This document shows positions 42,812 through 59,472 of a DNA stretch of 59,472 bases, in pieces (position 1 is the first letter of the stretch; the number at the start of each line of letters is the position of its first letter). A model generated the notes under the pieces. The model did no database searches. It had not been told where the DNA came from and worked only from the letters and a program-made list of their open reading frames with translations. A program made the translations under genes and the position numbers. Location of the stretch: positions 1-59,472 of the forward strand of contig DATFQI010000391.1 in assembly GCA_035264365.1 (NCBI GenBank), given 5' to 3'. Origin of the DNA: Solirubrobacteraceae bacterium. GTDB lineage: Bacteria; Actinomycetota; Thermoleophilia; Solirubrobacterales; Solirubrobacteraceae.

Positions 42812-42831
42812 ATCTAACGATCCCGTTAGAT
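42812..42831. promoter_or_regulatory. candidate ArsR operator: perfect 8-bp inverted repeat ATCTAACG-ATCC-CGTTAGAT overlapping the arsR-like start codon
   Basis: Read directly from the sequence. It lies in a locally AT-rich stretch (42795-42835). ATG 42830 lies inside the right arm. A second palindrome, AGATA-CGT-TATCT, sits at 42803-42815. Confidence 0.55.
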
Positions 42832-43159
42832 GCTCACCGACCAGCTCAGCCTCACGTTCGCGGCCCTCGCCGACCCGACGCGCCGCTCGATCCTCACTCG
42901 CCTCGCCGAGGGCGAGGCGACCGTCACTGAGCTCGCGGAGCCATTCCCCATGAGCCTGCCCGCGATCTCGCGACACCTCAAGGTGCTCGAGCGCGCGGGG
43001 CTGATCGCCCGCAGCCGCGACGCCCAGTGGCGGCCGAGCCGGCTGCAAGCTGACCCGCTCGACGACGCGGCGGAGTGGATCGAGTCGCGCAAGCGAACCT
43101 GGGAAGCCCGGATGGACCGACTCGACGCGCACCTGCGCGCGAAAGGAGAGCAACGATGA
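42830..43159 (+). CDS. ArsR/SmtB-family transcriptional regulator
   Basis: ORF 42830..43159, 109 aa. It reads FAALADPTRRSILTRLAEGEATVTELAEPFPMSLPAISRHLKVLERAGLI. Confidence 0.88.
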   Translation: MLTDQLSLTFAALADPTRRSILTRLAEGEATVTELAEPFPMSLPAISRHLKVLERAGLIARSRDAQWRPSRLQADPLDDAAEWIESRKRTWEARMDRLDAHLRAKGEQR

Positions 43160-43611
43160 CCGACTCGACCCCCGTGGCCGCCGACCAGCAGGTCAAGATC
43201 ACCCGCACCTTCGACGCGCCACGCCAGCAGGTCTTCCGCGCCTGGACCGATCCGGACGAGGTCGCGAGCTGGTTCGGCCCCGAGCACGTCGACACACCGC
43301 GCGAGCGGATTCATATCGACCTGCGCGTCGGAGGGCGCTACGAGCTCACGATGGTCCAGCGCGACAGCGGCGCCGAGTTCGCGATCGGCTACGACATCCT
43401 CGAGCTCGTGGAACCGGAGCTGCTCGTCCTGCGCTCGGATCCGATGCCCGAGATGGGCATGCACGAGCGCACGATCACGCGCGTCGAGCTGCACGACATC
43501 GGCGGGCAGACCCGCATGGACCTGACCGACGGCCCCTACCCCGAAACCGGACACGCCGAGGCCGGCTGGCACGCCGCCTTCGACAAGCTCGCGACGGTCG
43601 TCGCGCGGTAG
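43156..43611 (+). CDS. SRPBCC/AHSA1-family protein
   Basis: Track ORF 43075..43611 trimmed to ATG 43156, an ATGA overlap with the ArsR stop, with AAAGGAGAG upstream. It reads ITRTFDAPRQQVFRAWTDPDEVASWFGP. Confidence 0.85.
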   Translation: MTDSTPVAADQQVKITRTFDAPRQQVFRAWTDPDEVASWFGPEHVDTPRERIHIDLRVGGRYELTMVQRDSGAEFAIGYDILELVEPELLVLRSDPMPEMGMHERTITRVELHDIGGQTRMDLTDGPYPETGHAEAGWHAAFDKLATVVAR

Positions 43612-43660
43612 CGCGTCAAACAAAGCCAGCGCCGCTGCAGCCGTCGTGGCGCGCCCTGCT

Positions 43661-44956
43661 TCACACCGTCTGCGGGAGGAGCGAGTGTGCGGTGCTCTTG
43701 TGCCACTCGAGCAGGAGGGCGGTGGCATCGTCGCGCAATGCCCCTTCGCCGCGTTCGATGATTGCTTCGCGTAGGCCGCGGAGCGTCTCGGGGGCAGGGA
43801 GGCCGTTGGCGGCCTGGCGTTCGATGAACTCGCCGAGGCGCTCGACGGTGAACAGCTCGCCGTCCGGGCGGCGCGCCTCGGTCAGCCCGTCGGTGTAGAG
43901 CAGGAGCATGTCGCCGGGCTCGAGCCACTCCTCGCCTTCGATGGGCTCACGGGTGGCGAGTCGCATGCCCAGCGGCGGTGATGGCGTGATGTCGAGCGGC
44001 TTGACCAGGTGCCCGCTGCGGAGGAGCAACGGCGGGGGATGCCCCGCGCTGATCCAGCTCAGCCGCCCGGTCGCCAGTTCGAGCTCGGCAATGAGCCCGG
44101 TCACGAAGCGGCTGGTCGGGTATTGCTCGAAGATCGCTGCATCGATCGTCTTGTACCTGGTCGCCGGGCTCTCGCCGTGGCGCCGGCTGTGCCGGTAGGC
44201 TGCCAGCGCGAAGGCCGCCACCCCGGCCGCGGCGAGGCCGTGTCCCATCGCGTCGAAGACGGCGAAGTGCAGGATGCCTTCGGCGTTGACGGCGTAGTCG
44301 TAGGCGTCGCCTCCGTTGTCGTACGCAGGCTCGAGCAGTGCGCCCAGGACGAATGCGTCGGTCGCCAGGACCTGGGGCGGGACGAGATCCCAGATCAGCT
44401 CGCTGGCCATCGTCATCGATTGCCGTCGGCGAAGCAGCTTGAAGAAGTCGCTGTAGAGATCCTTGTTGGTGATCAGCGTGGCGATCAGATGGCTGAGCCG
44501 CTCGCACAACGCGACGAGCGCCTCCGGCAGCGGCCCCTGGCGGCCCCCGAAGCTCATTTCCACGACCCCGAGCCGCTCGGTGCCGTCGATCAGCGGCAGC
44601 CACAACCGGCGACTTCCGCCGTCGTCCTGGAGTTGGATGATGGAGGTGGAAGCGAAGGCGCGGCCGGCCACGGTGCCCTGGATCTGCAGCGGCTCGCCGT
44701 CGGGTGAGCCGGGGTGCGGCACGGGGATCAGGCGCTTCTGCTCCTGGTCGACGACATACGGCACCAGGGAATCGGCCGCGATGCGGCGCGCCTCCTCAGC
44801 GACGACCGTGGCGAGGTCGGACGCGGAGCTGAGGTGCGTCCGGCGCAGGACCTCTTGCAGCAGCTCGCCGGCCCGCGACGCGATGTCGCATTGCTCACCC
44901 ACCGTCGATACGGCTTCCACCGAAGCGGATTCGCGGTCGCTCAAGCCCACGAGCAC
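43661..44956 (-). CDS. GAF-domain PP2C-type (SpoIIE/RsbU-like) serine phosphatase
   Basis: ORF 43661..44956, 431 aa. The phosphatase motifs are GGDAYDY, FDAMGHGLAAA, SAGHPPPLL and LLLYTDGLTEA. Confidence 0.85.
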   Translation of the reverse strand: MLVGLSDRESASVEAVSTVGEQCDIASRAGELLQEVLRRTHLSSASDLATVVAEEARRIAADSLVPYVVDQEQKRLIPVPHPGSPDGEPLQIQGTVAGRAFASTSIIQLQDDGGSRRLWLPLIDGTERLGVVEMSFGGRQGPLPEALVALCERLSHLIATLITNKDLYSDFFKLLRRRQSMTMASELIWDLVPPQVLATDAFVLGALLEPAYDNGGDAYDYAVNAEGILHFAVFDAMGHGLAAAGVAAFALAAYRHSRRHGESPATRYKTIDAAIFEQYPTSRFVTGLIAELELATGRLSWISAGHPPPLLLRSGHLVKPLDITPSPPLGMRLATREPIEGEEWLEPGDMLLLYTDGLTEARRPDGELFTVERLGEFIERQAANGLPAPETLRGLREAIIERGEGALRDDATALLLEWHKSTAHSLLPQTV

Positions 44957-46226: not shown

Positions 46227-49200
46227 GTGCCTGACACCCAGCCACTCCTTCCTTATGTGCCGCGCCTTCTGCTGCGGCACCTCGAGGAGACGCCCGAGGC
46301 GCCGCTGCGCGTCCTCGACGGGTCGCTCGTGTTCGTCGACATCTCGGGCTTCACGCGGCTCTCGGAGCGCCTGGCTCGCCAGGGACGGGAGGGGGCCGAG
46401 CGCCTGGCCGATGCGATCGACGAGTGCTTCACAGCGCTGCTGGCGGTCGCCTACGAGAACGGCGGCGGTCTCCTGAAGTTCGGCGGCGACGCGCTGCTGC
46501 TGCTGTTCGACGGCGACCAGCACCCGCAGCGAGCGTGCCGGGCGGCGTTCGGGATGCGAGCGCTGCTGCGCGAGATCGGGCGGCTGGACGCGGGCGGCGT
46601 GCAGGTCAAGCTGCGCATGTCGGTCGGCGTCCACTCCGCGGAGTGCACGTTCTTCGTGACGCGCGGGGCGCACCGCGAGCTGCTCGTGGCCGGCCCGGCG
46701 GCGACGGAGGTGGTCCGGATGGAGCACGCCGCCGGCGCGGACCAGATCGTGGTGAGCGGCGCGACGGCATCCAGGCTGCCCGCCGGTTGCACGGGCCCGC
46801 CTGCGGGGCCCGGCCGTCTGCTGCGCGAGGCGCCTCTCGCGCGGGCGGATGCCGCACCGGAGGCACGCCGGACGGCCCCCCTCCGCCTGGACACCGTGCT
46901 CTCACCGCTGCTCCGCGACCACCTACAAGGTGGTGTCGGCACGCCGGAGCACCGCATGGTGACCGTCGCCTTCCTGCGCTTCGGCCGTCTTGACGCCCTG
47001 CTCGCCGAGCAGGGCGCGGATGCGGTCGCGAGCGCTCTCGACGACCTGGTCGCGCGGACCGCCGCGGCGGCCGGGCGCCACGGTGTCTGCCTGCTCGGCT
47101 CGGACGTCGACGCCGACGGCGGCAAGCTGCTGTTGGCGGCCGGCGCACCGGTCGCCACGGGAGATGACGACGAGCGGATGCTGCTCGCGATGCGGGAGGT
47201 GCTCGAGGGCGGCGGAGCGCTGCCCATCAAGATCGGCGTGCACCGCGACGCCGTGTTCGCCGGCGACATCGGTCCCGCGTACCGCCGGACCTACACGGTC
47301 ATGGGAGACGCAGTCAATCTCGCTGCTCGGCTCATGCTCGCCGCGCCCGAGGGCGAGCTCTACGCGACCGAGCGGGTCGTCGACGGCTCCGGCACGCGCT
47401 TCGAGGTCGCGCGCATGGCGCCCTTCCGCGTCAAGGGCAAGGCGCGTCCCGTCGACGCGCTGTCCGTAGGCCTGGCCCTCGGCGGCCGGAGCCGGGAGTC
47501 CCTGCTGGCCGACCGGCGCTTCGCGCTGGTGGGACGCCGCCGCGAGACCGAAGCCTTCGAAGCCGCCGTCGCGAGCGTGCGCGACGGGCGCGGGCGGGTG
47601 CTCGACATCGTCGGCGAGCCCGGGATCGGCAAGAGCCGGCTGCTCGAGGAGCTCAGGATCCGCGCGAGCGACCTGCGCGGGCTGCAGGTCACGTGCGAGG
47701 CGTACACCGCGGACGTCCCGCACGTGGCCTCGCGGCAGCTGCTGCACCAGGTGCTGCGCATTCCTCTGGACGCCGACGCCGCCCATGTGGAGTCTCGCCT
47801 GCGCGCCGCCGTCGCCGCCGCCGAGCCGGTGCTCGAACCGTGGCTGCCGCTGCTCGCGATCCCCCTCGGGCTCGACCTCCCGCCCACGCAACAGGTCGCC
47901 CACCTCGACGGCGAGTATCGGCGCGACAAGCTCCACGAGGTGGTCGTGGCGTTCCTGCGTGCGACGCTCAAGGCGCCGACGCTGATCGAGGTGGAGGACG
48001 CGCATCACGTCGATCCCGCCTCGACCGGGCTCCTCGCCGCTGTCGCGGCGGCCGCCCCGGACGCGCCGTGGCTGCTGGTTGTGACACGGCGTGACGCCGG
48101 CCCGGGCGTCGCGACGCATGCGGCGGTCGAGCGCATCGAGCCGGAGCCGCTCACCTCCGCCGAGACGCTGGCCCTCGCACGTGACGCGACGGCGCACGTG
48201 CCGCTGCCGCCGCGGGTGCTCGAGATCGTCGCGGAGCGCTCCGGCGGCAATCCGCAGTTCCTCCGGGACCTCCTGCGCTCTGCCGCCCGGGACGGTGCCG
48301 AGCACCTCCCCGAGAGCATCGAGGCGGCCGCCGCGGCGCGGCTCGACCGCCTTCCGCCCGCGGATCGCACGCTCGTCCGGCGCGCGGCCGTCCTCGGGCG
48401 CGCGTTCGACCCGGCCCTGATCGGGCTGGTGCTCGACGAGGACGCGCAGCCGCCGGACGCGGCGACGTGGGCTCGGCTGCACCGTTACGTCGAGCCCGAC
48501 GGTGACTGGTTCCTGCGCTTCCGTAGACAGGTCGTGTGGGAGGCCGCGTATACCGGGCTCCCGTTCCGGACCCGCCGCCGTCTCCACCTCCGCGCGGGCC
48601 TCGAGCTCGAGCGGCGCGGCGGCGATGACGCCGTGCTGGCACTGCACTTCGAGCGCGCCGGCGACCACGAGCGCGCGTACCGCTACGCGCGACGGGCCGG
48701 GGACGCCGCGGTACGGGACCTCGCTCCGGCCGAGGCATCCGTGGCGTACCGGCGTGCGCTCGAGGCGGGGCGGATGCTCGGCGTACCGGCGGGCGAGCGC
48801 TCGGCGGTGTGGGAGTCCCTGGGCGACGCGCATGCGCAGCTCGGCGAGCTCGCCGCGGGCCACCACGCCTTCTCCGCTGCCCGCCGACTCGCCGCAGACG
48901 ACCCGATCCGCCGGGCGCAGCTGATGCTGCGCCACGCCGAGCTCTCGGTCGAGGCCGGCCGGATCCGGCCCGGTGTGCGCTGGGCGCTGCGCGGGCTGCG
49001 GACGCTCGACGCGGTGGAGGGTCCTGAGGCCGCCGCGGCCCGGGTGCGGCTGACAGCCATGCTCGCGACGCTGCGTCAGCGTCAGGGGCGGGCGGCCGAG
49101 GCGATCGCGCTCTGCCGCGCCGCGATCCCCGCCGCGGAGGCGGCCCGCGAGGACAGGGCCCTCGCCCATGCCTGCTACGTCCTGGACTGGGCGCTCGTGG

Positions 49201-50036
49201 AGTCGGGGCGCGCCGTGGAGGCCGGGTTCTCCGACCGGGCGCTGGCGATCTACCGCCGGCTCGGCGACGTGGGCCGGGAGGCGGCGGTGCTCAACAACGC
49301 CGGCGGGTTCGCGTATCGCGACGGGCGCTGGAAGGACGCGATGGACCTCTACGTTCAGGGCGCGGAGGCGAGCGCCCGCTCGGGCAACTCGGCCAACGCG
49401 GCGTTCGGCGACTGCAACGTCGGCGAGCTGCTCTCGGATCAGGGTCACTGGGAGGAGGCCGAGATGCTGCTGAGCCGCGCGCGCCAGGTGTGGCGCGGGA
49501 CCGGCTACGAGTGGGGCGTCGCGTACGCCACCGCGCAGCTCGGCCGGCTCGCCGCACGCTCCGGGCAGGCCGGTCAGGCGCTCACCAGGCTGCTCGACGC
49601 ACTCGCGCGGTTCCGCGAGCTGGGCGTCGAGGGCGACGTGCAGTTTGCGGAGGCGCTGCTGGCGGAGGCTGCCGCGTTTGCGGGCGACGGAGAGACCGCA
49701 CGGGCGACGGCTGACCGGCTGCTCGCCGACGGGGACGTGGGCCTGCTCGAGCCGTTGCTCCATCGCGTCAAGGCGATCTCCCTCGCCCAGCGCGGCGACG
49801 TCGACGGTGCGACGGTGGCGCTCGAGGCGGCACTCGACGCCGCGCGGGCGCAGGAGCAGGACTACGAGACGCTGGTGGCGCTCGACGCGCGGGCGCTACT
49901 GACGCGCTTCGACGCCGCAGCGACGCGCCGAGCCGAGCTGGCCGCTCGGCTCGGGGTTGCGCGTCTGGCCGCTCCGCCGCTCACTATGGCCGGTACGCCG
50001 GATCCTCCGCGCCGGCCGGAGCCCGCACCTCGATGA
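46227..50036 (+). CDS. tandem class III cyclase domains + P-loop STAND/AAA ATPase + TPR-like repeats
   Basis: ORF 46227..50036, 1269 aa, GTG start 33 nt after the cNMP-binding gene. CHD1 has FVDISGFT and KFGGDA. CHD2 has YTVMGDAVNLAARL. The P-loop is VGEPGIGKSRLLEEL (about 47613-47660). The long helical repeat C-terminus carries TPR-like ...ALAIYRRLGD...AGGFAYRDGRW... units. Confidence 0.88.
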   Translation: MPDTQPLLPYVPRLLLRHLEETPEAPLRVLDGSLVFVDISGFTRLSERLARQGREGAERLADAIDECFTALLAVAYENGGGLLKFGGDALLLLFDGDQHPQRACRAAFGMRALLREIGRLDAGGVQVKLRMSVGVHSAECTFFVTRGAHRELLVAGPAATEVVRMEHAAGADQIVVSGATASRLPAGCTGPPAGPGRLLREAPLARADAAPEARRTAPLRLDTVLSPLLRDHLQGGVGTPEHRMVTVAFLRFGRLDALLAEQGADAVASALDDLVARTAAAAGRHGVCLLGSDVDADGGKLLLAAGAPVATGDDDERMLLAMREVLEGGGALPIKIGVHRDAVFAGDIGPAYRRTYTVMGDAVNLAARLMLAAPEGELYATERVVDGSGTRFEVARMAPFRVKGKARPVDALSVGLALGGRSRESLLADRRFALVGRRRETEAFEAAVASVRDGRGRVLDIVGEPGIGKSRLLEELRIRASDLRGLQVTCEAYTADVPHVASRQLLHQVLRIPLDADAAHVESRLRAAVAAAEPVLEPWLPLLAIPLGLDLPPTQQVAHLDGEYRRDKLHEVVVAFLRATLKAPTLIEVEDAHHVDPASTGLLAAVAAAAPDAPWLLVVTRRDAGPGVATHAAVERIEPEPLTSAETLALARDATAHVPLPPRVLEIVAERSGGNPQFLRDLLRSAARDGAEHLPESIEAAAAARLDRLPPADRTLVRRAAVLGRAFDPALIGLVLDEDAQPPDAATWARLHRYVEPDGDWFLRFRRQVVWEAAYTGLPFRTRRRLHLRAGLELERRGGDDAVLALHFERAGDHERAYRYARRAGDAAVRDLAPAEASVAYRRALEAGRMLGVPAGERSAVWESLGDAHAQLGELAAGHHAFSAARRLAADDPIRRAQLMLRHAELSVEAGRIRPGVRWALRGLRTLDAVEGPEAAAARVRLTAMLATLRQRQGRAAEAIALCRAAIPAAEAAREDRALAHACYVLDWALVESGRAVEAGFSDRALAIYRRLGDVGREAAVLNNAGGFAYRDGRWKDAMDLYVQGAEASARSGNSANAAFGDCNVGELLSDQGHWEEAEMLLSRARQVWRGTGYEWGVAYATAQLGRLAARSGQAGQALTRLLDALARFRELGVEGDVQFAEALLAEAAAFAGDGETARATADRLLADGDVGLLEPLLHRVKAISLAQRGDVDGATVALEAALDAARAQEQDYETLVALDARALLTRFDAAATRRAELAARLGVARLAAPPLTMAGTPDPPRRPEPAPR

Positions 50037-51291
50037 CGCCGTTGCCGGCCCGGTCCTTACGTCGGGACGCCACGCACGGGGGCGTGCCGCAGTCGGGCAG
50101 CGTGGCGTAGTACCAGTCGATCGCGCCGTCGCCGTCGATGTCGGCTTCCTGCGGTGCTCCACCGGCCCGGGTCGGGAACGTGAACGGCGCGGCGAAGCAC
50201 ATCTGCAGGGATGATGCGCCGTTGTCGGGACTGGCGTTCATCACACGCTTGTCGATCGAGTAGACGACGCGCTTCTGCCGGTCCGGCCCGAGGACGAGCG
50301 CCCAGTCGGCAGACAGCTCCTGATAGCCGGTGCAGTCCGGCCTGAAGCCGGTGTTGAACGAGAGCTGGAGGAAGCCGGCGTCCGTGGCAGGGCCGGCGAA
50401 GGCGCTGGCGTCGACGTTCGAGCGGGGCGTGCTGAGCGAACCGGAGCAGTCGACGTCCTCCACGCACTCGATCGCCAGCTGCTGGATCGTGAAGAGCGCC
50501 GAGACAGCAGGCTCCAGCCCCGGCGCGGAGGCCTGCAGGCGGTAGCTGCCAGGCGCGTCGACGCTGAGGTCGCCGAACGCCGCGAAGCCCGCCGCCGCGG
50601 TCACGGAATTCTGACCGAGCAGTGTTCCCAGGCCACCGGCGGAGGCGAGGTCGACGGAGACCGTGGGAGCCGACGACGTCAGGCGGTTGCCCCCGCCGTC
50701 GACCACCTCGACCGAGACGGGCGGTCCGGCGGGATCGAAGTCTGCGGCGCTGATCCGCTCGCCGACACGCGCGTCCTGCGGCTGGGCGGCGAAGCGCAGT
50801 GCGCAGCCGCCGGTCACCGCGGTGGTGAGCACCTCCGGAGAGGAGACCAGCACGAAGTCGTTCCCCGGAGAGCCGTTGAACCGGTTCGCCTGCTTGGCCA
50901 GCACGCTCCATGCGTACTCGCCGGCGGCGCACCCGGCGTCGACGGTCACGGCGACCTGGACCGCCGCACCGGGTGCCAGCGAGAGGTTGCGCAGCTCGAT
51001 CACATTGCCGCGGACCGTCGCGGAACCGGGGCCGGGCAGCGACACGGCATGGACCGTCAGCGCCGAATGCACCGTCAAGTTCGCCGAGCCGAGATCCTGC
51101 TGATCGGACTGGTTCTCGATCGTCGCCGTGACGACGGACTGCTGGCCGGCCGGGATGGACGCCGGCGTCAGGACGACGCTGTACGGCTTGACCTCCGCGC
51201 CGGCGGCCGCCGGCAGCAGCATGATCGCGAGGAGCGCGCCGGCAACGATCCATGGGTGCGCCTTCCGAAGGCGCGGGGGCGAGACGGGCAT
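49984..51291 (-). CDS. secreted multi-domain (Ig-like/CARDB-like repeats) protein
   Basis: Track ORF 49984..51363 trimmed to ATG 51291, with AAAGGAGAG upstream. The signal peptide is WIVAGALLAIMLLPAAAGA. Beta-rich domains follow (TATIENQSDQQDLGSANLTV...; RFAAQPQDARVGERISA...SYRLQASAPGL). The C-terminus is Cys-rich. Confidence 0.65.
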   Translation of the reverse strand: MPVSPPRLRKAHPWIVAGALLAIMLLPAAAGAEVKPYSVVLTPASIPAGQQSVVTATIENQSDQQDLGSANLTVHSALTVHAVSLPGPGSATVRGNVIELRNLSLAPGAAVQVAVTVDAGCAAGEYAWSVLAKQANRFNGSPGNDFVLVSSPEVLTTAVTGGCALRFAAQPQDARVGERISAADFDPAGPPVSVEVVDGGGNRLTSSAPTVSVDLASAGGLGTLLGQNSVTAAAGFAAFGDLSVDAPGSYRLQASAPGLEPAVSALFTIQQLAIECVEDVDCSGSLSTPRSNVDASAFAGPATDAGFLQLSFNTGFRPDCTGYQELSADWALVLGPDRQKRVVYSIDKRVMNASPDNGASSLQMCFAAPFTFPTRAGGAPQEADIDGDGAIDWYYATLPDCGTPPCVASRRKDRAGNGVIEVRAPAGAEDPAYRP

Positions 51292-51403
51292 GCGAGTGCA
51301 CTCTCCTTTTCCCGCCCTCGGTCGAGGCCGGTCCGTGGCGCGGCCTTGCGCCGAGGTGCCCACTCTCTCCGACCGACCGTTGCGCTGTCAAGCATCGTGT
51401 TGA

Positions 51404-54400
51404 TCATCCGAACAAGTTCCGCGGCGCCTCCGCGAGCGCCTCTCGGGCGGCCACTCTCCCTGCTTCTCGCGCGACGTCGATCTGATGGAACTCGAGCAAG
51501 GACACGCCCTCGGCCCGCGGCTTGATGACCAGGTCCGCGTGCCGGCGCGCTGCCTCCGACGTGTTGGCGCTCCCGAGCAGCAGCACGCGCGTGAGCGTCT
51601 CGCCGAGGCGTGGCGGCCGTGGGACGCCACCTGAGGGGCGCGCCCCGGCATCCGGGCGCTCGGCCGTCGGCTTGACGTCGACTGCGATCACCGGGCCCTC
51701 GCCCATGTCGGCCATGACGCGGACCGGCAGGTTGTCGACCAGCGATCCGTCGATGAACAACTCGCGCCCGCGCACCTGCGGCGGAGCGACCACCGGCAGG
51801 CAGACGCTGAAGCCGACCGCCTCATAGAGCGGGCCCCAGCGGTCGACCTGGAGCCGGCCGCTGCGCAGCTCGGTCGAGCCGCTCATGAAGCTGCGCGGCA
51901 GCTCCTCGATGGCGACGGTCCCGAACGTGCGCTCGAGCATCGCTCGGGCGCGCTCGCCGCGGATGAGGGCGTGCCGCGGCAGCGTGTAGTCGGCCAGCGG
52001 GCGCCGCTGCACCCACTCCTCGAAGCAGCGCGCGTCGATCTCGTCGGCGTTGAGCCCCATCGCGAACAGCGCGCCGACGAACGAGCCCATGCTGACGCCC
52101 GCGACGCGGTCGATGGTCACGCCGGCGGCCGTGAGCTCCTCGAGGACGCCGATGTGCGAGAAGGCACGCGCGCCGCCGCCGGACAGCACGACACCGACGG
52201 ACCGGCCGGCCAGGCGCCGGCCGAGGCGGGCGAGATCCTCGTCGAGGTCGTCAGGACGCAGCACATGGGTCTCGATCGGCTCGAGCGCGGCGGCCACTGC
52301 GTCGAGGACTCCGGAACCCGGGGCCACGCCGTAGGCGACGAGATCGCATCCGCGGAGCTCGTGGCGGGCGGCGACAGCCGCAGGCAGAGGGCCGTGGGAC
52401 ACGAGCACCAGGATCCGGTCGGCCTGCTGCAAGCAGAAGCCGGTCCAGCCGTCGTCGTCGTCCGCCACACCCGCGTCGAGCACCACGAGGTCGTGCTGCC
52501 CCTCCGCCCGATCGAGCAGCGGCCCGTACAGGCCTGCAGGCTCGCTGCCGTTGACCGTCGACGGCGCGTCCCGCGCACCGAGGAACGTCGCGTCCAGGTG
52601 GCGCCCGAGTGCCCCGGCGAGACCGCTGGCGATGGTGTCGGACGGCATCCCGCGGTCGACGGCGAGGACGGCGACCGTTGCAGGACGGGGACGCGTCGAG
52701 CGCGCGGGTGCGCGCATCTCCCGCAACTGCCCCGCGAGGGTGCGGGCAAGGGCGAGGGGAAGGGCCGGAGCCGTGGCCAACAGCTCCTCGAAATCGTCGC
52801 GGTAGACGGCGAGGAGGTCCGTGTCACGCGCCGCCCGGACCGACGCCGCGCGCGGCTCACCTGTGAGCAAGGCGAGCTCGCCGACGGCATCCCCCCGCCC
52901 GATCTCGCGGATCATCGCGCCCGTAGCTCCCTCGAGGACGTGCATGCGCCCGGCGCGGAGCACGTAGAGCGCGTCGCCGGACTCGCCCTCACGGAACAGC
53001 CACTCGCCGGCGGCGACCCGCAGTGGACGCGCACGCTGGGCGACCGCATCTCGGAGCGCCGGATCGAGGCCGGCGAACATGGGCACGCGTGCGAGGAAGT
53101 CGGCCGCCGTCTCCGCTCGCGGCGCCGCCGGTTGCGCGGCGTCGACGCTGATCGCCCGGCGCGCGGCCGGAGGAGGCGCGGGCATCGCCTCGGTGAGCCG
53201 CTCCTGCAGCACGGCGCGCGCCGCGGCGCCCAGCGACGGCGCCTCCGAGCCCGGCGGTCGGCCGACGAACAGGCAGCCCAGTCCGGCCACCAGGAAGCAG
53301 GCTGCGCCGAACGCCCATGCGCGGTCGAACGCCGCAGCAGCCTCGGTGGCGGAGGGCGTCCCGAGGATCGCGACGACAACGGCGACGCCAAGCGCGGCGC
53401 CGATCTGGCGCGCGACCGAGTTCAGGCTCGTCGCCGTCGCGTACTCCGTCCCCGGCGCCGACGCCGCGGCCGCGGCGGTGAGGTTGGGGAGCAGCGCGCC
53501 GGCACCGACGCCGAGGAGCGCGACTGCGGGCAGCCACTCACCTATGAAGTCCGGCGTCGTCCCCACGCGCGTCACGAGCCACACCACGGCCGCGCACCAC
53601 ACGAGGCCGCCTGCAACCAGGACGGGCCGGGGCCCGAAGCGGGTGACGAGATGGCTGGTGGGCCCGGCGACGGCGGCGGCGACGAAGGGCCCGGGCGTCA
53701 TCGCGAGGCCCGCCTCCAGCACGGAGTACTGCCAGACCGCGGTCAGGAACAGCACGTTGACCAGCGTGTAGCCGTAGAACCCGGCGCCCGTGACGAGCGT
53801 CATGGCGTTCGTGACGCCGAACGTCCTGTCGCGCAGGAGCGACAGGTCCACGATCGGCGCACGATGGGTGACGCAGCGCCGGGCGAACAGCGCGACGAGC
53901 GCGATCGCCACCACGAACGACCCCAGGACCCGCCCGCTGAGCCAGCCCCACTCCTCGCCCTTGACGACGCCGAGCACGAGCGCGGCGATAGCCACCGCGA
54001 GGACGAGGGCCCCCGTCAGGTCCGGCACGCGGCGCCGTCCGGGGGCCCGGCTCTCCACGAGGTGCCGGCGCGTGAGCACGATCGCCGCCACGCCGATCGG
54101 CAGGTTGACCAGGAAGACGAGCCGCCAGTCGCCCGCGGCCACCAGCAGCCCGCCGAGCGACGGGCCGAGCCCCGCAGCCCCGGCGGCGACGGCAGACAGC
54201 AGGGCCACGCCGTGGGAGCGGCGCTCGGGTGGGAACGCCTCCAGCACCAGCGCCAGCGACGAGGGGACGAGAAGCGCGGCCCCGAGCGCCTGCAGCACAC
54301 GGAAGGCGACGAGCGCGCCGGGGGACCAAGCGATCGCGCAGAGCGCGGAGGCGATCGTGAAGAGCTCGAGGCCCGCGATGAACACGCGCCGCCGGCCGAC

Positions 54401-54670
54401 GAGGTCGGCCAGCCGGCCCGCGGCGACCAGGAACGCCGCGAACACGATGTTGTAGGCGTTCAGGATCCATGACAAGGACGCGATCGACGCGTCGGGGTAC
54501 GAGCGGGCGATGTCCGGGAACGCGATGTTGACGATCGTCGCGTCGACGAATGCCATGGCGGCGCCCAGCGAGGCGACCGCCAGCACCGTCCGCGCCTGTG
54601 GTCCGCGACGGCGTGCCACGGTTGGGGCGGGCGGAGCGACCTCCGCCGGCTCGGCATGCGTGGTGGCCAT
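51404..54670 (-). CDS. three-part fusion: DHA2-type MFS transporter + cyclic-nucleotide-binding domain + patatin-like phospholipase (NTE-like)
   Basis: Track ORF 51404..55291 trimmed to ATG 54670 (MATTHAEP...). The MFS part reads FVDATIVNIAFPDI and GRLADLVGRRRVF. The cNMP cassette is GDAVGELALLTGEPRAASVRA. The patatin motifs are LSGGGARAF (oxyanion), GVSMGSF (GxSxG) and IDGSLVDNLP (DG[AG]). Confidence 0.85.
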   Translation of the reverse strand: MATTHAEPAEVAPPAPTVARRRGPQARTVLAVASLGAAMAFVDATIVNIAFPDIARSYPDASIASLSWILNAYNIVFAAFLVAAGRLADLVGRRRVFIAGLELFTIASALCAIAWSPGALVAFRVLQALGAALLVPSSLALVLEAFPPERRSHGVALLSAVAAGAAGLGPSLGGLLVAAGDWRLVFLVNLPIGVAAIVLTRRHLVESRAPGRRRVPDLTGALVLAVAIAALVLGVVKGEEWGWLSGRVLGSFVVAIALVALFARRCVTHRAPIVDLSLLRDRTFGVTNAMTLVTGAGFYGYTLVNVLFLTAVWQYSVLEAGLAMTPGPFVAAAVAGPTSHLVTRFGPRPVLVAGGLVWCAAVVWLVTRVGTTPDFIGEWLPAVALLGVGAGALLPNLTAAAAASAPGTEYATATSLNSVARQIGAALGVAVVVAILGTPSATEAAAAFDRAWAFGAACFLVAGLGCLFVGRPPGSEAPSLGAAARAVLQERLTEAMPAPPPAARRAISVDAAQPAAPRAETAADFLARVPMFAGLDPALRDAVAQRARPLRVAAGEWLFREGESGDALYVLRAGRMHVLEGATGAMIREIGRGDAVGELALLTGEPRAASVRAARDTDLLAVYRDDFEELLATAPALPLALARTLAGQLREMRAPARSTRPRPATVAVLAVDRGMPSDTIASGLAGALGRHLDATFLGARDAPSTVNGSEPAGLYGPLLDRAEGQHDLVVLDAGVADDDDGWTGFCLQQADRILVLVSHGPLPAAVAARHELRGCDLVAYGVAPGSGVLDAVAAALEPIETHVLRPDDLDEDLARLGRRLAGRSVGVVLSGGGARAFSHIGVLEELTAAGVTIDRVAGVSMGSFVGALFAMGLNADEIDARCFEEWVQRRPLADYTLPRHALIRGERARAMLERTFGTVAIEELPRSFMSGSTELRSGRLQVDRWGPLYEAVGFSVCLPVVAPPQVRGRELFIDGSLVDNLPVRVMADMGEGPVIAVDVKPTAERPDAGARPSGGVPRPPRLGETLTRVLLLGSANTSEAARRHADLVIKPRAEGVSLLEFHQIDVAREAGRVAAREALAEAPRNLFG

Positions 54671-54855: not shown

Positions 54856-55455
54856 CTACTCGCTCGCTGAGTCGCGCAGCTGCGTGAGGGAGATGGCGCC
54901 GCGCCGCAGCGCCTCGTTGGCGAGCCGCGCGCGGCGCGAGCCCTCGGCGGCGACGGCGAACTTGTCGTACAGGTTGGCCAGATGCTGCTTGACCGCGGCC
55001 TGCGTGATGACGAGCTCCTCGGCGATCGCCTGCGTCGACGCCGGCTCCGTGAACATGTCGCGGTCCAGCAGCGGACGACACAGCGCCAGGAGGACGTCCC
55101 GCTCGCGCGTGGTCAGCGCCGGCGGCGCCTCGTCGGCCTGCGTCACCGTGGCACCGGCGGCCAGCGGGTCGTGGAACACCAAGCGGGTCTGGCCGATGCG
55201 GATCTCGTCGCCATGCTGGAGGCGGTGCGAGGACCAGACCCGCTCGCCGTTGATCGCCGTGCCGTTGGACGACCCGAGGTCGCTCACGCACCAGCCCGCC
55301 GAGAAGCGCTCCAGGACGGCATGCAGGCGACTCGCGGTCGGGTCGTCCTCGAGCGGCACGTCGTTCTCGGGCGCCTTGCCGATCGTGACACGGTCAGCCT
55401 CCAGCGGGATCCGCCGGCTGCGTACTCCGGAGATCACCTCGATCTGCGGGGCCAC
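54856..55455 (-). CDS. FHA-domain + LuxR/GerE HTH transcriptional regulator
   Basis: Only the last 199 codons of track ORF 54856..57234 look real. From GTG 55455 (alternative GTG 55437) it reads RVTIGKAPENDVPLEDDPTASRLHAVLERFSAGWCVSDLGSSNGTAINGERV (FHA). It continues with LTTRERDVLLAL...TQAIAEELVITQAAVKQHLANLYDKF (HTH). Confidence 0.8.
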   Translation of the reverse strand: MAPQIEVISGVRSRRIPLEADRVTIGKAPENDVPLEDDPTASRLHAVLERFSAGWCVSDLGSSNGTAINGERVWSSHRLQHGDEIRIGQTRLVFHDPLAAGATVTQADEAPPALTTRERDVLLALCRPLLDRDMFTEPASTQAIAEELVITQAAVKQHLANLYDKFAVAAEGSRRARLANEALRRGAISLTQLRDSASE

Positions 55456-55470
55456 CGTGCCGTCAAGCCT

Positions 55471-58400
55471 ATGGCGCGGAGCAACGGCTCGATGAGCGAA
55501 CCGCTCCTGGAGGGCCGCATGCTGCACGGGCGCTACGAGGTCTTGGAGACGCTCGGCGTGGGCGGCGAGGCGCGCGTCGTCAGGGCGCTCGACCATCGCC
55601 ACGAGCGTCTGGTCGCGTTGAAGATCCGGCGGGTGCGCGATGACGCGGCGCGCGAGAGCCTGCTCCGCGAGGCCCGGCTGCTGCTCGGCCTCCAGCCGCA
55701 CCCGGCGCTGCCGCTTGTCCGCGAGGATTTCTTCGTCGACGACGAGTACGTCGTCGCGATGGACTGGGTCGACGGGACCGACCTGGCGTGGATCCTGGCC
55801 GAGCGCGGAGCGCCCGGACTGGCGCCCTCCAGCGTCGTGGCCTACCTCGCCGAGGCCGCCGAGGCGCTGATGTTCCTGCACGCGCAGGAGCCGCCGATCG
55901 TGCACGCCGACGTCAAGCCGGCGAACCTGATCCTGACTCGCGGCGGGCACGTCAAGCTCGTGGACTTCGGGCTCTCGTCCACGCCGCTGATGCTCGGGAG
56001 CCGCTCGGGAACGACCGGCTACCGCGCCCCGGAGCTCGCGACGGGCTCCCCGCCGTCGCGCGCGAGCGACGTGTACGCGCTGGCGGCGACGGCCTTCGCG
56101 CTGCTGACCGGGGCTCCGCCGCAGGGGGTGCTGCCGGCCTGGGAGGGAATCGACCCGGCCCTGGCCGAGCAGCTCGAGAGCGCGATCCGCCTGGGGCTCG
56201 CGACGGACCCGGCGCGGCGGCCGGCGACGCCGGGTGAGCTCGTCGAGCGGCTGCGCGCCGGTTGGGGAGCGACGCTCCCGGCGGGCGTGACGACGTTCTG
56301 CCTGTCGGACATCGACTCCTCGACGGTGCTGTGGGAGCAGGATCCCGGCGCGATGGCGGCGGTGCTCGTCCGCCACGACGAGCTCGTCGCGGGGGCGGTG
56401 GAGTCGCACGGTGGCCGCTTCCTGAAGTCCAAGGGCGAAGGGGACGCGACCTTCTCGGTGTTCGAGTCCGCGTCCGGCGCGGTGCAGGCGGCGATCGCCG
56501 CGACGCGCGCGCTCGGCGCCGAGCGGTGGCCGAACGGCTGGAGCATCGCGGCCCGTTTCGGGATCCATACCGGCGAGGCCGAAAGACGCGATACCGACTA
56601 TTTCGGCCCGGCGGTCAACCTCGCGATGCGCGTGCGCGGGCAGGGTGGCGGCGGCGAGATCCTGCTGTCGCGGCTCACGGCGGGTCTGACGGCGAAGCAC
56701 CTGCCGGCGGGGTACTCGCTCGTCGACCTCGGCCCTCACCGCCTTCGCGCCGTCGAGGGTCCCCAGACGCTGCACGCGGTCGCAGGCCCCGGCGTCACCG
56801 CGCCGGCGCCGGCGAGCCGGTGCCCCTACCGCGGGCTGCTGGCGTTCGACGCGGACGACCGCGCCTTCTTCTTCGGGCGCGAGGTCGTGCTCGGCTCGGT
56901 CATCGAGCGGATCGCAACGCGGCGCCTGCTCGCGCTCGTGGGAGCGTCGGGCAGTGGGAAGTCCTCGCTGCTGCGCGCCGGCCTGATCGCGTCCGTCAGT
57001 GCCGGGGAGGTGCCCGGGGTTACGAGCGCGCGGCTGGTGCATCCCGGGGCGCGGCCGCCGGCGGCGATCGACGGCGGCGCCGCGACCCTCGTCGTCGTGG
57101 ACCAGTTCGAGGAGCTGTACACGCTCTGCGACGACCCTGGCGAGCGGGGGCGCTTCATCGATTCGTTGCTCGCCCATACCGGACCGGTGGCGATCGCCGT
57201 GCGCGCCGACTTCTACGGCGAGCTGAGCGCGCATCCTGAGCTGGCGAGCGCGGTGGCCTCCAACCAGATCCTGCTCGGCGCGATGAGCGAGGAAGAGCTG
57301 CGCCGCGCGGTGACCGAGCCGGCGCGCATCGCCGGGCTGCGGCTCGAGCCCGGACTCGTCGACGTCGTCCTCGGCGAGGTCGCCGGCGAGCCGGGGGCCC
57401 TGCCCCTGCTCTCACACGCGCTGCGCGCGACCTGGGAGCGGCGCGACGGACGCACCCTGACCGTCGACGCGTACCGGGCCACCGGCGGGGTGACCTCGGC
57501 CGTCGCGCAATCGGCGGACGCGCTGGTCGAGGCGATCCCCGCCGGAGAGCGAGACCTGCTGCGCAACGTCTTCCTGCGGCTGACGGAGCTCGGCGACGGG
57601 GTCGAGGACACGCGACGGCGGGTGCCGATCGACGAGCTCGTCCCCCAGGACGTCCCGGGAGACACCGTTCGCGACCTGCTCGGCCGCTTCGCCGCTGCCC
57701 GGCTCCTCACGCTCGGGGAGGGGACTGCGGAAGTAGCGCACGAGGTGCTGATCCGCCAGTGGCCGACCCTGCGGGGCTGGCTCGAGGAGGATCGCGAGGG
57801 TCTGCGCCTGCACCGGCGGCTCGGCGACGCTGGGCGCATCTGGGAGGCCGCGGGGCGCGATCCCACGGACCTCTACCGCGGCGCCCGGCTCGCCGCCGCA
57901 CTCGAATGGGCGCAGGTGCATCAGGATGCCCTGAACGCGACGGAGCGCGCGTTCCTCGACGCGAGCATCGCCGAATCCGAGCGCGAGCGGCGGGTGCAGC
58001 TGCGGGCCAACCGCCGCCTGCGCGCATTGCTCACCGTCGCAGGGGTACTGCTCGTGGCCGCGACGGTGGCGGGCCTACTGGCGCTCCGGGAAAGCGGCGA
58101 CGCGCGGGACTCCGCACGGAGCGCCGACGCACAGCGGCTCGGCGCTCAGGCGCTGATCGACGACCGGCTCGATCGGAGCCTCCTGCTCGCCCAAGCCGGC
58201 CGCGTGCTCGACGACACCGTGGTCACCCGCAGCCACCTCCTGTCGGCGCTCGTGCGCCCTCCCGGCGCGGTCGGCGTGATGCAGGGCGGCGGGGACCCGC
58301 TCTACGCGCTGTCACTGAGCCCCGACGGGCGGATGCTCGCCACCGGCGGCGAGAGCGGGACCCTCTTGCGCTTCGACCCGCGGTCGCGCCGGAGGATCGG

Positions 58401-59472
58401 TCGTCCGATCCAGGTGGACGGCCCCATCGTGAGCCTCGACTTCTCGCCGAACGGCACCTTGCTGGCCGCCAACGGCGGCATCGGCGGAGGACGTGAGGTC
58501 GTGAGGCTGATCGAGCCGGCAACCGGACGCACCGTGCGCGATATCGAGTTCTCCGACCCGCGCTCGGGCGATGGATACGGCTTCACGGACATCCGGTTCG
58601 GGCCGGGCGGAGGGACTGTGGTGGTGACGACGTTCTTCGCGGCGGCCGGACAAGTGCCGCACCCCGCTCACGTCCGTCGCTTCGATGTGCGCAGCGGGAG
58701 GCAGCTGGGGCGCGTCTTGCGTGTGGGCCGACCGGACACGGTCGCGCCTGTCGTCGTGACACGGCGTGACCGCCTCGTTCTCACGGGGACCGCCGAGAAC
58801 GCGACGTACGTGGTGGACACGGCGACGCTGCGTGTGCGGAAGCGGCTCCCGAGCGGGGCGTTCACCGCCGGGCTGGCTCTCGACGGCCGCCGTACCGCCC
58901 TCGGCGGCGAGGACGGCAGCGTCACGCTTCTGGACCTCCGCACGGGGAAGCGCCGGCGGTTGGCGGACCGGCACGACGGTCGAGTGCAAGAGCTCGCATT
59001 CAGCGCGGACGGGCGCACACTGGCGACCGTCGGCGACGACGGCCGCGGGCTGGCATGGGACCTGCGCCGCGGCCGCGTGCGGGAGACGCTGACCGGCCAC
59101 AGCGGACGGGTCACCCACGTCAACGTCTCAGACGATGGACGCACCCTCTACACGACCGGTGTCGACAGCCGGATCATCGTCTGGGACATCGCGGGCGACC
59201 GGCGCCTCGCGCAGCCCTTCCCTGGCGGCAACCCGCTCGGGGAGGGTCTCGTGCCCGCGCTCGCCGTCAGCCCCGACGGCCGACGGCTCGCCGCGGGCCT
59301 CCGCGGCGGCGGCGTCCGGCTCCGCGACGCCCGCACGCTGCGACTGCAGGGCGAGCTCCCGGGGCTCGACGGGGACGCCGCGCTGGCCGTCGAGTTCAGC
59401 CCTGACGGGCGCACGATCGCGGTGACCGGCAGCGGTGGGAGCGTCGCGCTGCGCGACGCGCGCAGCGGCCGG
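55471..59472 (+). CDS. Ser/Thr kinase + class III cyclase + nSTAND-type P-loop NTPase + TM helix + WD40/beta-propeller repeats (3' end beyond the right edge)
   Basis: Absent from the ORF track because it has no stop in the window. I translated 1334 uninterrupted codons from ATG 55471 (alternatives 55492, 55519). The kinase has GVGGEARVVRA..LVALK, IVHADVKPANLIL, VDFGLS and GYRAPE. The cyclase has TFCLSDIDSSTVLWE, KSKGEGDATFSVF and YFGPAVNLAMRVR. The nSTAND part has CPYRGLLAFDADDRAFFFGRE, Walker A GASGSGKSSLLRAG and Walker B LVVVDQFEEL. The TM helix is LLTVAGVLLVAATVAGLLAL (~58020-58090). Repeated ...SPDGR.LA.G...G.V.L.D... blades run from ~58300. Confidence 0.87.
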   Translation, partial: MARSNGSMSEPLLEGRMLHGRYEVLETLGVGGEARVVRALDHRHERLVALKIRRVRDDAARESLLREARLLLGLQPHPALPLVREDFFVDDEYVVAMDWVDGTDLAWILAERGAPGLAPSSVVAYLAEAAEALMFLHAQEPPIVHADVKPANLILTRGGHVKLVDFGLSSTPLMLGSRSGTTGYRAPELATGSPPSRASDVYALAATAFALLTGAPPQGVLPAWEGIDPALAEQLESAIRLGLATDPARRPATPGELVERLRAGWGATLPAGVTTFCLSDIDSSTVLWEQDPGAMAAVLVRHDELVAGAVESHGGRFLKSKGEGDATFSVFESASGAVQAAIAATRALGAERWPNGWSIAARFGIHTGEAERRDTDYFGPAVNLAMRVRGQGGGGEILLSRLTAGLTAKHLPAGYSLVDLGPHRLRAVEGPQTLHAVAGPGVTAPAPASRCPYRGLLAFDADDRAFFFGREVVLGSVIERIATRRLLALVGASGSGKSSLLRAGLIASVSAGEVPGVTSARLVHPGARPPAAIDGGAATLVVVDQFEELYTLCDDPGERGRFIDSLLAHTGPVAIAVRADFYGELSAHPELASAVASNQILLGAMSEEELRRAVTEPARIAGLRLEPGLVDVVLGEVAGEPGALPLLSHALRATWERRDGRTLTVDAYRATGGVTSAVAQSADALVEAIPAGERDLLRNVFLRLTELGDGVEDTRRRVPIDELVPQDVPGDTVRDLLGRFAAARLLTLGEGTAEVAHEVLIRQWPTLRGWLEEDREGLRLHRRLGDAGRIWEAAGRDPTDLYRGARLAAALEWAQVHQDALNATERAFLDASIAESERERRVQLRANRRLRALLTVAGVLLVAATVAGLLALRESGDARDSARSADAQRLGAQALIDDRLDRSLLLAQAGRVLDDTVVTRSHLLSALVRPPGAVGVMQGGGDPLYALSLSPDGRMLATGGESGTLLRFDPRSRRRIGRPIQVDGPIVSLDFSPNGTLLAANGGIGGGREVVRLIEPATGRTVRDIEFSDPRSGDGYGFTDIRFGPGGGTVVVTTFFAAAGQVPHPAHVRRFDVRSGRQLGRVLRVGRPDTVAPVVVTRRDRLVLTGTAENATYVVDTATLRVRKRLPSGAFTAGLALDGRRTALGGEDGSVTLLDLRTGKRRRLADRHDGRVQELAFSADGRTLATVGDDGRGLAWDLRRGRVRETLTGHSGRVTHVNVSDDGRTLYTTGVDSRIIVWDIAGDRRLAQPFPGGNPLGEGLVPALAVSPDGRRLAAGLRGGGVRLRDARTLRLQGELPGLDGDAALAVEFSPDGRTIAVTGSGGSVALRDARSGR

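Follow-up and report, generated by a model that had tools for sequence, protein, structure and literature searches.

The DNA analysed here, hereafter the window, is a 59,472-nucleotide stretch of contig DATFQI010000391.1 (assembly GCA_035264365.1) from a Solirubrobacteraceae bacterium, and its right-hand end holds most of a very large receptor gene next to a small, oppositely oriented gene for a regulator with an FHA domain and a LuxR-type helix-turn-helix (HTH). Judged from domains and conservation, the two genes appear to form an outside-to-inside signalling pathway, as yet uncharacterised, in soil actinobacteria. The receptor frame (55471..59472, plus strand) runs through 1334 sense codons and is stop-free to the window's final base on translation, as an earlier note on this DNA had reported together with its G/C bias at third codon positions. 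The GC content of the frame by codon position is 0.78/0.54/0.91, and third-position GC (GC3) lies between 0.80 and 0.96 in each 100-codon block. Since this pattern matches that of the other real genes of the window (~72% G+C), the frame is coding; it is missing from the list of open reading frames (ORFs) because frames that leave the window end are omitted from it. This is certainly a real, very large gene, cut by the end of the window. Its 3′ end, which the earlier note had proposed to recover, is provided by a 99%-identical database protein (P0001) with a full length of 1595 residues, and the window therefore lacks the last 261 codons. The start had been placed at 55471. However, L082, a relative of 75% identity, has ACG in place of this ATG, and the window shares the ATG at 55492 (MSEPL...) with both of its closest relatives, L081 and L082, which points to 55492 as the probable start and to a product of ~1588 residues (Table 1).

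In the same region, the ORF list contains a 792-residue frame on the minus strand (54856..57234), which the earlier note had rightly reported and had regarded as an antisense artefact. This is correct for its upstream ~590 codons, but not for the last 199. Indeed, codon-position GC shifts at ~55440: upstream, the frame is a shadow of the receptor gene, with first-position GC above 0.9, whereas the last 199 codons (55455..54856) show about 0.7/0.5/0.95 at the three positions, and their product contains an FHA (69.5 bits) and a GerE/LuxR HTH domain (26.2 bits). The tail of the antisense frame is a real FHA-LuxR gene, called here the partner gene. It begins with GTG at 55455 in the window and with ATG in L081, and the receptor and partner genes are probably divergent, with 36 bp between their start codons. 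With so short a gap, any control region that they share must extend into the coding sequences, unless their mRNAs are leaderless. In L081, a 91%-identical relative, the FHA-LuxR gene (1673..2252, minus strand) lies in two frames split at residue ~112, of which the gene caller kept a 66-residue piece; the split reflects either a fault in the assembly or a pseudogene.

Table 1. Coordinates of the receptor and partner genes and of their parts in the window
Feature	Position	Strand	Basis
Receptor gene, 5′ 84% (1334/1595 codons)	55471..59472	+	open frame, GC3 0.91; full length from P0001
Hanks-type Ser/Thr kinase, aa 20-265, non-RD	55528..56265	+	Pkinase 108 bits; catalytic residues invariant
Class III nucleotidyl cyclase, aa 270-440	56278..56790	+	Guanylate_cyc 27.4 bits; Ma1120 alignment
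nSTAND1 NTPase, aa 452-798	56824..57864	+	PF20703 380.6 bits; Walker A GASGSGKSS, Walker B VVVDQFEEL
Continuous ~74-residue helix, aa ~823-896, containing the transmembrane segment	57937..58158	+	AlphaFold 2 models
Predicted transmembrane segment, aa 852-872, ALLTVAGVLLVAATVAGLLAL, N-in/C-out	58024..58086	+	hydrophobicity, flank charges
Helical juxtamembrane module, aa 873-940	58087..58290	+	AlphaFold 2 helices 48-61, 65-76; A882, R889, G891 conserved, among others
WD40 blades 1-9 of 14; propeller A complete, propeller B cut by the window end	58291..59472	+	Pfam, blade motifs, AlphaFold 2, Foldseek
Partner gene: FHA (aa 23-88) + linker + GerE/LuxR HTH, 199 aa	54856..55455	-	coding statistics, Pfam, linkage
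Thr105 codon of the partner, candidate phospho-acceptor T-[E/Q]-x-[D/E]	55141..55143	-	conservation in 123 partners
Gap between the divergent start codons, 36 bp	55456..55491	.	start-codon mapping

We counted residue conservation over 113 full-length receptor relatives. In the kinase, which the Pkinase profile (PF00069) matches at residues 22-217 well above its cutoff of 31.7 bits, K51 (VALK), E67, K149, the H145, D147 and N152 of HADVKPAN, D165 (DFG) and the APE motif are invariant in 113/113. The residue that precedes the catalytic Asp is a Gly (HGD) in 112 of these sequences, and an Ala (HAD) in the window's lineage only. As no Arg stands ahead of this Asp, the whole receptor family is made of non-RD kinases, and the non-RD kinase with intact catalytic motifs that the earlier note had read in the window is a family trait. 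The nearest solved kinases by sequence are the mycobacterial PknE, PknB and PknA, and the nearest fold found by Foldseek with the N-terminal model is PknI (target TM-score 0.78).

The cyclase segment, scanned alone, passes the Guanylate_cyc (PF00211) cutoff of 21.9 bits, and a profile built from 18 relatives matches the Mycobacterium avium adenylyl cyclase Ma1120 (4wp3; E = 6.5e-23), then LipJ/Rv1900c (E = 2e-12) and the trypanosome GRESAG4 cyclases. The window copy carries D280 (SDIDSST), K319, E323 and D325 (GEGDA), D376, and N383 and R387 (AVNLAMR). D280 and N383 are each kept in 109/113 and R387 in 102/113; in the alignment with Ma1120, K319 (85/113) stands at the substrate Lys and D376 (89/113) at the substrate Asp. 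The profile and this alignment confirm the cyclase assignment and the Asn/Arg pair of the earlier note, which had also named the Asp residues of SDIDSST and GEGDA as metal ligands. D280 can be retained in that role, but the second metal Asp of Ma1120 aligns with E323 (E in 99 and D in 11 of the 113), and D325 (106/113) falls within a 2-residue insertion relative to Ma1120 (GEGD vs GD), so that E323 and D325 are both plausible second ligands. The core set is intact in 94/113, the window copy included, and 19/113 have lost at least one core residue; the ATP-type K/D pair is also kept in 69/113. The cyclase would then usually be competent, of the predicted adenylyl type, and decayed in about 17% of lineages. 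Because the kinase residues are all kept in 113/113 in spite of this decay, the kinase appears to be the obligatory output of the receptor family.

The assignment of an nSTAND-type nucleoside triphosphatase (NTPase) by the earlier note is borne out by a match to nSTAND1 (PF20703) at profile positions 1-378 of 379 (E = 1.6e-113, cutoff 27.1 bits) with intact Walker motifs. G491, S493, G494, G496, K497, S498, S499, D544, E547 and E548 are invariant in 113/113, and the pLDDT of the AlphaFold 2 (AF2) model is mostly above 90 across the domain. No solved nSTAND1 relative was detected in a PDB sequence search and Foldseek with the N-terminal model gave kinases only. PYRGLLAFD..FFFGRE, GASGSGKSS and DQFEEL, like the kinase and cyclase motifs cited above, all lie where the earlier note had seen them, and each of its kinase, cyclase and NTPase assignments has independent profile support, as does the WD40 region.

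Beyond the NTPase, residues 852-872 form the sole strongly hydrophobic stretch of the receptor (KD19 = 2.44, against 1.29 for the next best), in agreement with the single hydrophobic helix that had been noted between the NTPase and the WD40 blades. The segment comprises 21 uncharged residues, reaches a KD19 of up to 3.1 in relatives, and is conserved for hydrophobicity rather than for sequence. The small conserved residues G856, A864, A867, G868 and A871 would suit helix-helix packing. Two relatives served as AF2 proxies, a 65%-identical one for the cytoplasmic half and a 91%-identical one for the outer half. The cytoplasmic-half model (pLDDT 82.8) places the transmembrane (TM) segment inside one continuous ~74-residue helix: helix 800-873 of the model of P0083 corresponds to window residues 823-896, and the second model has a helix at 2-44. 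Over the 113 sequences, the net charge is +4.6 in the flank ahead of the TM segment and +0.3 in the flank past it, which by the positive-inside rule gives an N-in/C-out orientation. Exported actinobacterial proteins generally pair their cysteines. Past the helix, 108/113 family members and 91 of 98 clan representatives (50% clustering; binomial p ≈ 9e-20) have an even number of cysteines, while before the helix the same 98 representatives split into 46 even and 52 odd counts. A cysteine pairing confined to the C-terminal side would be expected from disulfide bonding outside the cell and argues for external propellers; moreover, the ATP-using domains must be cytoplasmic. Hydrophobicity, flank charges and cysteine parity thus support, as a prediction, the topology suggested by the earlier note, with cytoplasmic N-terminal enzymes and extracytoplasmic propellers.

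A WD40 match (E = 7e-25), accompanied by many beta-propeller Pfam families, begins at about residue 946. We counted 14 blades, 13 by a regular expression and one by eye, which make two seven-bladed propellers. The outer-half AF2 model (pLDDT 90.8, pTM 0.88) consists of the helix, a small helical module and 14 four-stranded blades (~56 strands), and ends in a two-helix cap with a conserved C1568/C1593 pair. Foldseek with this model returns tandem 7+7 propellers (2ymu, E = 2e-39; Aip1; Apaf-1), and Apaf-1 has the best query TM-score (0.43) among the PDB matches of the C-terminal model. Pairwise identity is 41-44% in the propellers, with many indels, against 80% in the kinase, 71% in the cyclase and 72% in the NTPase; the sensor is thus the fastest-evolving part of the receptor.

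A search with the receptor protein gave 2,147 matches at E ≤ 1e-10. The 120 best show 54-99% identity, in most cases across 99% of the query, and nearly all have 1560-1600 residues. More than 120 clusters at 90% identity (17 at 50%) share the full architecture, so that the architecture called unusual in the earlier note is so in the literature searched, but not in nature. Automatic annotations of these proteins exist, such as "WD40 repeat protein/class 3 adenylate cyclase/..." at JGI and "protein kinase" at NCBI. The full architecture occurs in metagenome-assembled genomes (MAGs) labelled Solirubrobacteraceae, Paraconexibacteraceae and Conexibacter (one-genome-per-species contigs) and in others with the broader labels Solirubrobacterales, Actinomycetota and Actinomycetes; every named family that has it belongs to the Solirubrobacterales.

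The partner gene follows this architecture closely. We fetched 84 related loci, 10 with the kinase+cyclase form and 74 with other forms of the nSTAND1-TM-WD40 chassis. The partner lies directly beside the receptor in 10/10 kinase+cyclase loci, and an FHA domain was found in 0/74 of the others. The arrangement varies: the partner is divergent and upstream in five loci (L002, L008, L060, L081, L082), co-directional and upstream in two (L001, L003), convergent and downstream with a 4-bp overlap in L083 and L084, and convergent and downstream in L020, where the tblastn match begins 38 bp past that of the receptor. A search with the partner gave 2,332 relatives, and at least 9 of the best 120 sit on contigs of exactly the same size as those of receptor homologs. 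Over 123 partners, Ser42, His45 and Asn64 of the FHA domain are kept in 123/123. In the linker, which is otherwise variable, Thr105 is invariant (123/123), followed by E/Q at +1 in 118 and by D/E at +3 in 114.

We then considered the chassis itself. The 84 loci contain 83 ORFs with nSTAND1; in each of them a hydrophobic helix follows 60-90 residues past the NTPase (83/83), and most end in a C...LT..EW...C tail. These loci come from Streptomyces, other actinomycetes and Chloroflexota, plus two MAGs labelled Alphaproteobacteria and Melainabacteria. According to Pfam, the ORFs begin with SARP (Trans_reg_C+BTAD, in some cases plus AAA_16), an HTH_31 of the XRE type, a cyclase, BTAD+cyclase, or an HRD kinase that lacks a cyclase. 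An exhaustive search with the nSTAND1+TM segment gave 46,297 representative clusters at E ≤ 1e-3, and a census of the best 150 of these clan representatives with purpose-made hidden Markov models (HMMs) assigned a cyclase alone to 34, SARP to 29, kinase + cyclase to 17, SARP + cyclase to 8, kinase alone to 8 and HTH to 4; the remaining 50 had no assignment or were fragments. Of the 149 scorable representatives, 146 have the TM helix. Sampling of the group without assignment revealed further BTAD, AAA_16 fragments, a membrane/coiled-coil module of no known type and one TIR. The latter (TIR_2, 82.6 bits) is N-terminal on the nSTAND1-TM chassis of the clan representative P0256, and is the only classic immune-type effector among the sampled relatives. 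The membrane/coiled-coil module, shared by P0163, P0186, P0218 and P0174, spans ~200-280 residues, with a hydrophobic stretch of its own followed by a coiled-coil-like region; P0163 and P0218 were scanned and gave no Pfam match for it. By their sequences, then, nSTAND1-TM-WD40 is a widespread chassis with a swappable N-terminus, the window protein is one form of a large transmembrane STAND family whose outputs are mostly signalling or DNA-binding, and the kinase is an N-terminal addition to the receptor-cyclase form. One Solirubrobacteraceae MAG (L007) has an ORF, from ~9857, for a 60%-identical cyclase-nSTAND1-TM-WD40 protein that has no kinase, no FHA-LuxR neighbour and a differing C-terminal tail (CxxC); it keeps the last kinase helix motif, ELAERLRAG, ahead of the cyclase, which suggests a secondary loss of the kinase. 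Two others, a Thermoleophilia and an Actinomycetes MAG (L014 and L022), have a chassis whose kinase is of the canonical HRD type, with neither a cyclase nor an FHA-LuxR neighbour. As L022 and the kinase+cyclase locus L003 share one MAG, one genome can hold several receptor paralogs.

We propose, with a probability of about 0.6, that the window encodes a transmembrane STAND receptor whose oligomerisation activates a kinase and an adenylyl cyclase and which signals to the FHA-LuxR protein, probably via Thr105. The module would comprise two genes on a Solirubrobacterales (Thermoleophilia, Actinomycetota) chromosome, for a 1595-residue single-pass receptor and a 199-residue FHA/LuxR-type HTH regulator. 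In the receptor, a cytoplasmic, presumably active non-RD kinase, a class III adenylyl cyclase and nSTAND1 would be followed by a long helix and an external double propeller with a disulfide-capped tail. The gene, the domains, the catalytic residues, the topology signals, the partner linkage and the modular chassis were computed, and the mechanism below is drawn from known STAND, cyclase and kinase-FHA systems. The fast-evolving propellers would bind an extracytoplasmic ligand, and the resulting clustering, relayed via the TM helix, would let nSTAND1 exchange its nucleotide and oligomerise, as STAND NTPases do. Class III cyclases form active sites only as dimers. Oligomerisation could gather the N-terminal enzymes, so that cyclase dimers would make cAMP and proximity would activate the kinases. 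The kinase would then phosphorylate the partner, most likely on linker Thr105, and the FHA domain would read the phospho-threonine in cis or in trans, so that the LuxR HTH would dimerise or bind DNA differently and transcription would change. We read the receptor as signalling rather than killing because the chassis carries SARP, XRE-HTH, cyclase, BTAD+cyclase or kinase modules and lies in ordinary neighbourhoods. Indeed, a chassis that takes DNA-binding, cyclase and kinase outputs interchangeably would be nearer to one-component signal transducers than to cell-death effectors.

The component parts belong to known families, and the receptor appears to be a bona fide nSTAND1 member. nSTAND1 was defined by Kaur, Iyer, Burroughs and Aravind (eLife 2021; PMC8195603) with FGS/C-type-lectin sensors, EAD adaptors and a counter-invader role, and Ser/Thr kinase and FHA are listed there among the associated domains. 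Like those systems, the receptor has an N-terminal effector, a C-terminal repeat sensor and a full-length NTPase; unlike those described, it has a WD40 double propeller past a TM helix, two tandem enzymes, an FHA-LuxR partner and no defence context. In the literature searched, including a 2026 STAND survey and a paper on diversity-generating retroelements (DGR), we found no description of a transmembrane nSTAND1-WD40 receptor, of the kinase+cyclase tandem or of the FHA-LuxR partner. The mycobacterial STAND-type adenylyl cyclases Rv0386, Rv1358 and Rv2488c are soluble and join a cyclase to an AAA_16/NB-ARC-type NTPase, TPR and a LuxR HTH in cis. The receptor resembles them in the cyclase placed directly N-terminal to a STAND-type NTPase and repeat sensor, and in the use of a LuxR HTH as transcription output; it differs by its nSTAND1 domain, TM helix, external WD40 propellers and added kinase, and by a LuxR HTH carried on a separate FHA protein. 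Its closest solved cyclase relatives are Ma1120 and Rv1900c (LipJ), and K319, D376, N383 and R387 align to the substrate/transition-state residues of Ma1120; in contrast to both, it has the insertion at the second metal hairpin, and its cyclase sits between a kinase and an NTPase.

Among receptor kinases, PknD of M. tuberculosis is a Ser/Thr kinase with an NHL propeller and neither NTPase nor cyclase, and it shares with our receptor a cytoplasmic Hanks kinase, a single TM helix and an external beta-propeller, the latter being predicted here. Kinases paired with FHA regulators are known from PknH-EmbR, in which the EmbR FHA is joined to SARP/BTAD, and from GarA/OdhI. The adjacent FHA-containing transcription regulator as presumptive substrate recalls PknH-EmbR, and its Thr, which the FHA of the same protein might read, is reminiscent of GarA/OdhI. 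However, the kinase of the receptor is non-RD, with PknI as its closest fold; unlike PknD, the receptor has an NTPase and a cyclase, and, unlike EmbR, its partner joins FHA to LuxR instead of SARP/BTAD. Animal receptor guanylyl cyclases, which have an N-terminal ectodomain, a catalytically dead kinase-homology domain and a class III cyclase, are likewise single-pass with a kinase-fold domain immediately N-terminal to the cyclase; the present receptor has a kinase with every catalytic residue in place, a reversed polarity, and a STAND NTPase between cyclase and membrane. Apaf-1 offers the same order of STAND NTPase, helical domain and tandem WD40 double propeller, but in a cytosolic protein whose propellers fold back on the NTPase and which has a CARD adaptor as output. 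Actinomycetales have a threat-sensing pathway, Esr, in which a WD40 sensor at the surface signals by way of a Ser/Thr kinase to an FHA output protein and so changes transcription; it uses MoxR/vWA proteins and has neither STAND NTPase nor cyclase (Wang et al., bioRxiv 2026; PMC13622651). As in Esr, the sensor is the most divergent element; unlike Esr, the receptor fuses everything but the FHA output in one polypeptide. Esr provides an experimental precedent, within Actinomycetota, for a WD40-kinase-FHA signalling route. The S. coelicolor WD-40 protein WdpB (SCO5953), which has regulatory phenotypes as cited in PMC3896431, may be an HTH form of the chassis.

Several observations weigh against our proposal, and they also feed the alternatives. 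The sensor of a canonical STAND protein folds back onto its NTPase, which a membrane between them prevents here; the coupling mechanism is thus speculative. In one alternative, the helix does not cross the membrane, but is buried in an oligomer core or serves as a peripheral anchor in a protein that is wholly cytoplasmic, like Apaf-1. The close structural matches of the propellers are all cytoplasmic eukaryotic proteins, Apaf-1 included, WD40 domains are seldom described outside cells, and the pLDDT over the hydrophobic segment is low; yet a segment of this length and KD19 without any charge, kept hydrophobic though its sequence varies, the strong positive-inside asymmetry and the cysteine parity on either side of the helix (91/98 even past it, 46/98 ahead of it) make a cytoplasmic protein highly improbable. 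The same topology speaks against a cytoplasmic NLR-like STAND protein, anti-phage or otherwise engaged in conflict, in which the WD40 domain would sense an invader inside the cell and the kinase and cyclase would be abortive-infection effectors, as in Avs or nSTAND1 conflict systems. nSTAND1 was indeed defined in predicted counter-invader systems whose N-terminal effectors include Ser/Thr kinases and FHA (PMC8195603), the fastest-evolving part of the receptor is its sensor, and one clan relative carries a TIR domain, so that some chassis members may be immune effectors. The PADLOC kinase models PD-T4-6, mad6 and MkoA also match the receptor, but only over the generic kinase fold (residues ~8-266). 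The window and four receptor contigs (L081-L084) have housekeeping and regulatory neighbourhoods and no defence islands, a single Abi_alpha gene lying 10 kb away in one locus; the sensor lies beyond a strong TM helix and has the cysteine parity of an exported domain; the usual N-terminal modules of the chassis are DNA-binding and signalling domains, and the conserved partner is a transcription factor. Defence inside the cell is on these grounds an unlikely role, and we set aside the label of a defence system, since the PADLOC matches are limited to the generic kinase fold and none of the contexts examined is a defence island. Our proposal allows for threat sensing at the cell surface, as in Esr.

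The two outputs can be doubted separately. In the cyclase, the second metal ligand is ambiguous (E323 by HMM alignment, D325 in the insertion), the Guanylate_cyc score is low (27 bits), no conserved cyclic-nucleotide-binding partner gene stands beside the receptor in the 84 related loci, and, as 19/113 have lost a core residue, cAMP output seems dispensable in some lineages. With the K/D specificity pair in just 69/113, GEGD for GD at the second metal-ligand position and kinase residues that are complete in 113/113, one could imagine a catalytically silent, pseudo-enzyme-like dimerisation or regulatory module, the kinase and FHA-LuxR being the sole output. This view is unlikely, because the catalytic set is complete in 83% of members, the window copy included, conservation of the cyclase matches that of the NTPase (71% vs 72%), and a cyclase alone is the commonest N-terminal module on the nearest chassis relatives (34/150), which would be hard to explain without an output. 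As for the partner, the canonical Arg of the FHA 'GR' is never seen, being replaced by Lys in 110/123 and otherwise by T, Q, N or S; phospho-threonine binding may for this reason be weak or atypical. The FHA-LuxR protein might then be no kinase substrate, and might regulate the receptor gene only or act as an adaptor on the autophosphorylated receptor, with a structural role for Thr105. The 36-bp divergent arrangement of the window would suit autoregulation. However, the linkage persists in co-directional and convergent loci, in which the two genes have no common promoter region. The partner goes only with kinase-bearing HGD receptors and is absent with cyclase-only, HTH, SARP and HRD-kinase variants, and Thr105 with its acidic +3 residue stands out in a variable linker, so that a partner independent of the kinase is unlikely.

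We therefore retain the transmembrane receptor signalling to FHA-LuxR. STAND/NLR-type NTPases are understood as cytoplasmic sensors in which the repeat domain restrains the NTPase until a ligand binds. If the predicted topology is true, the membrane lies between sensor and switch, here and across a clan of tens of thousands of representative clusters, and the switch must be triggered differently, for example by clustering via the TM helix. We speculate, although this is rather unlikely as a whole, that nSTAND1-TM-WD40 proteins form a large and unrecognised 'outside-in' STAND class, and that the kinase+cyclase form is a compact counterpart, in bacteria, of a fusion between a pattern recognition receptor (PRR) with its non-RD kinase and an NLR, converting a threat or neighbour at the surface simultaneously into a phospho-threonine relay towards transcription and a cAMP burst. 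If so, the trigger might be a phage, an epibiont, a competitor or wall damage, and an NLR-type ATP switch would be driven from across the membrane without a fold-back sensor. The kinase+cyclase form offers two measurable outputs, a one-gene readout (FHA-LuxR) and a single predicted phospho-site (Thr105), and would thus be a tractable system for the coupling of a STAND switch to its enzymes. It also bears on what the Solirubrobacterales, little-studied soil bacteria, sense at their surface.

Just past the FHA-LuxR gene, a minus-strand gene (51404..54652) encodes a 1082-residue fusion protein in which an MFS transporter is joined to a cyclic-nucleotide-binding domain and a patatin-like phospholipase, and which we take to resemble M. 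tuberculosis Rv3239c. Further upstream, 46227..50036 (plus strand) encodes a 1269-residue STAND-type cyclase with Guanylate_cyc (two stretches), AAA_16 and TPR_12; it appears to be of the soluble mycobacterial Rv0386-like kind, and a LuxR HTH was not detected in it. Two distinct STAND-cyclase designs thus lie less than 10 kb apart in the window. We considered a local cAMP circuit that would join the receptor to these two neighbours and dropped it, because homologs of neither adjoin the receptor in any of the 84 loci (tblastn), the 91%-identical one included; the remaining neighbourhood also differs from locus to locus. Between these cAMP-related genes lies a 459-residue ORF (49984..51363, minus strand) whose coding statistics are good (GC3 0.89) and which has no Pfam match.

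The region 33658..44956 holds a dense run of signalling genes, among them a PAS-GAF-HisKA_3 histidine kinase (33658..36195, plus strand), an ECF sigma factor fused to SnoaL (41723..42766, plus strand) and a SpoIIE/PP2C phosphatase (43661..44956, minus strand). The phosphatase is not a conserved neighbour and could in principle oppose the receptor kinase. Elsewhere, two long ORFs overlap on opposite strands (21002..24364, plus, and 21008..22633, minus) with GC3 values of 0.87 and 0.93; the 1120-residue plus-strand frame has no Pfam match. Finally, the AT skew is 0.20-0.29 at 1..6000 and 52001..54000, and mostly within ±0.1 in the rest of the window.

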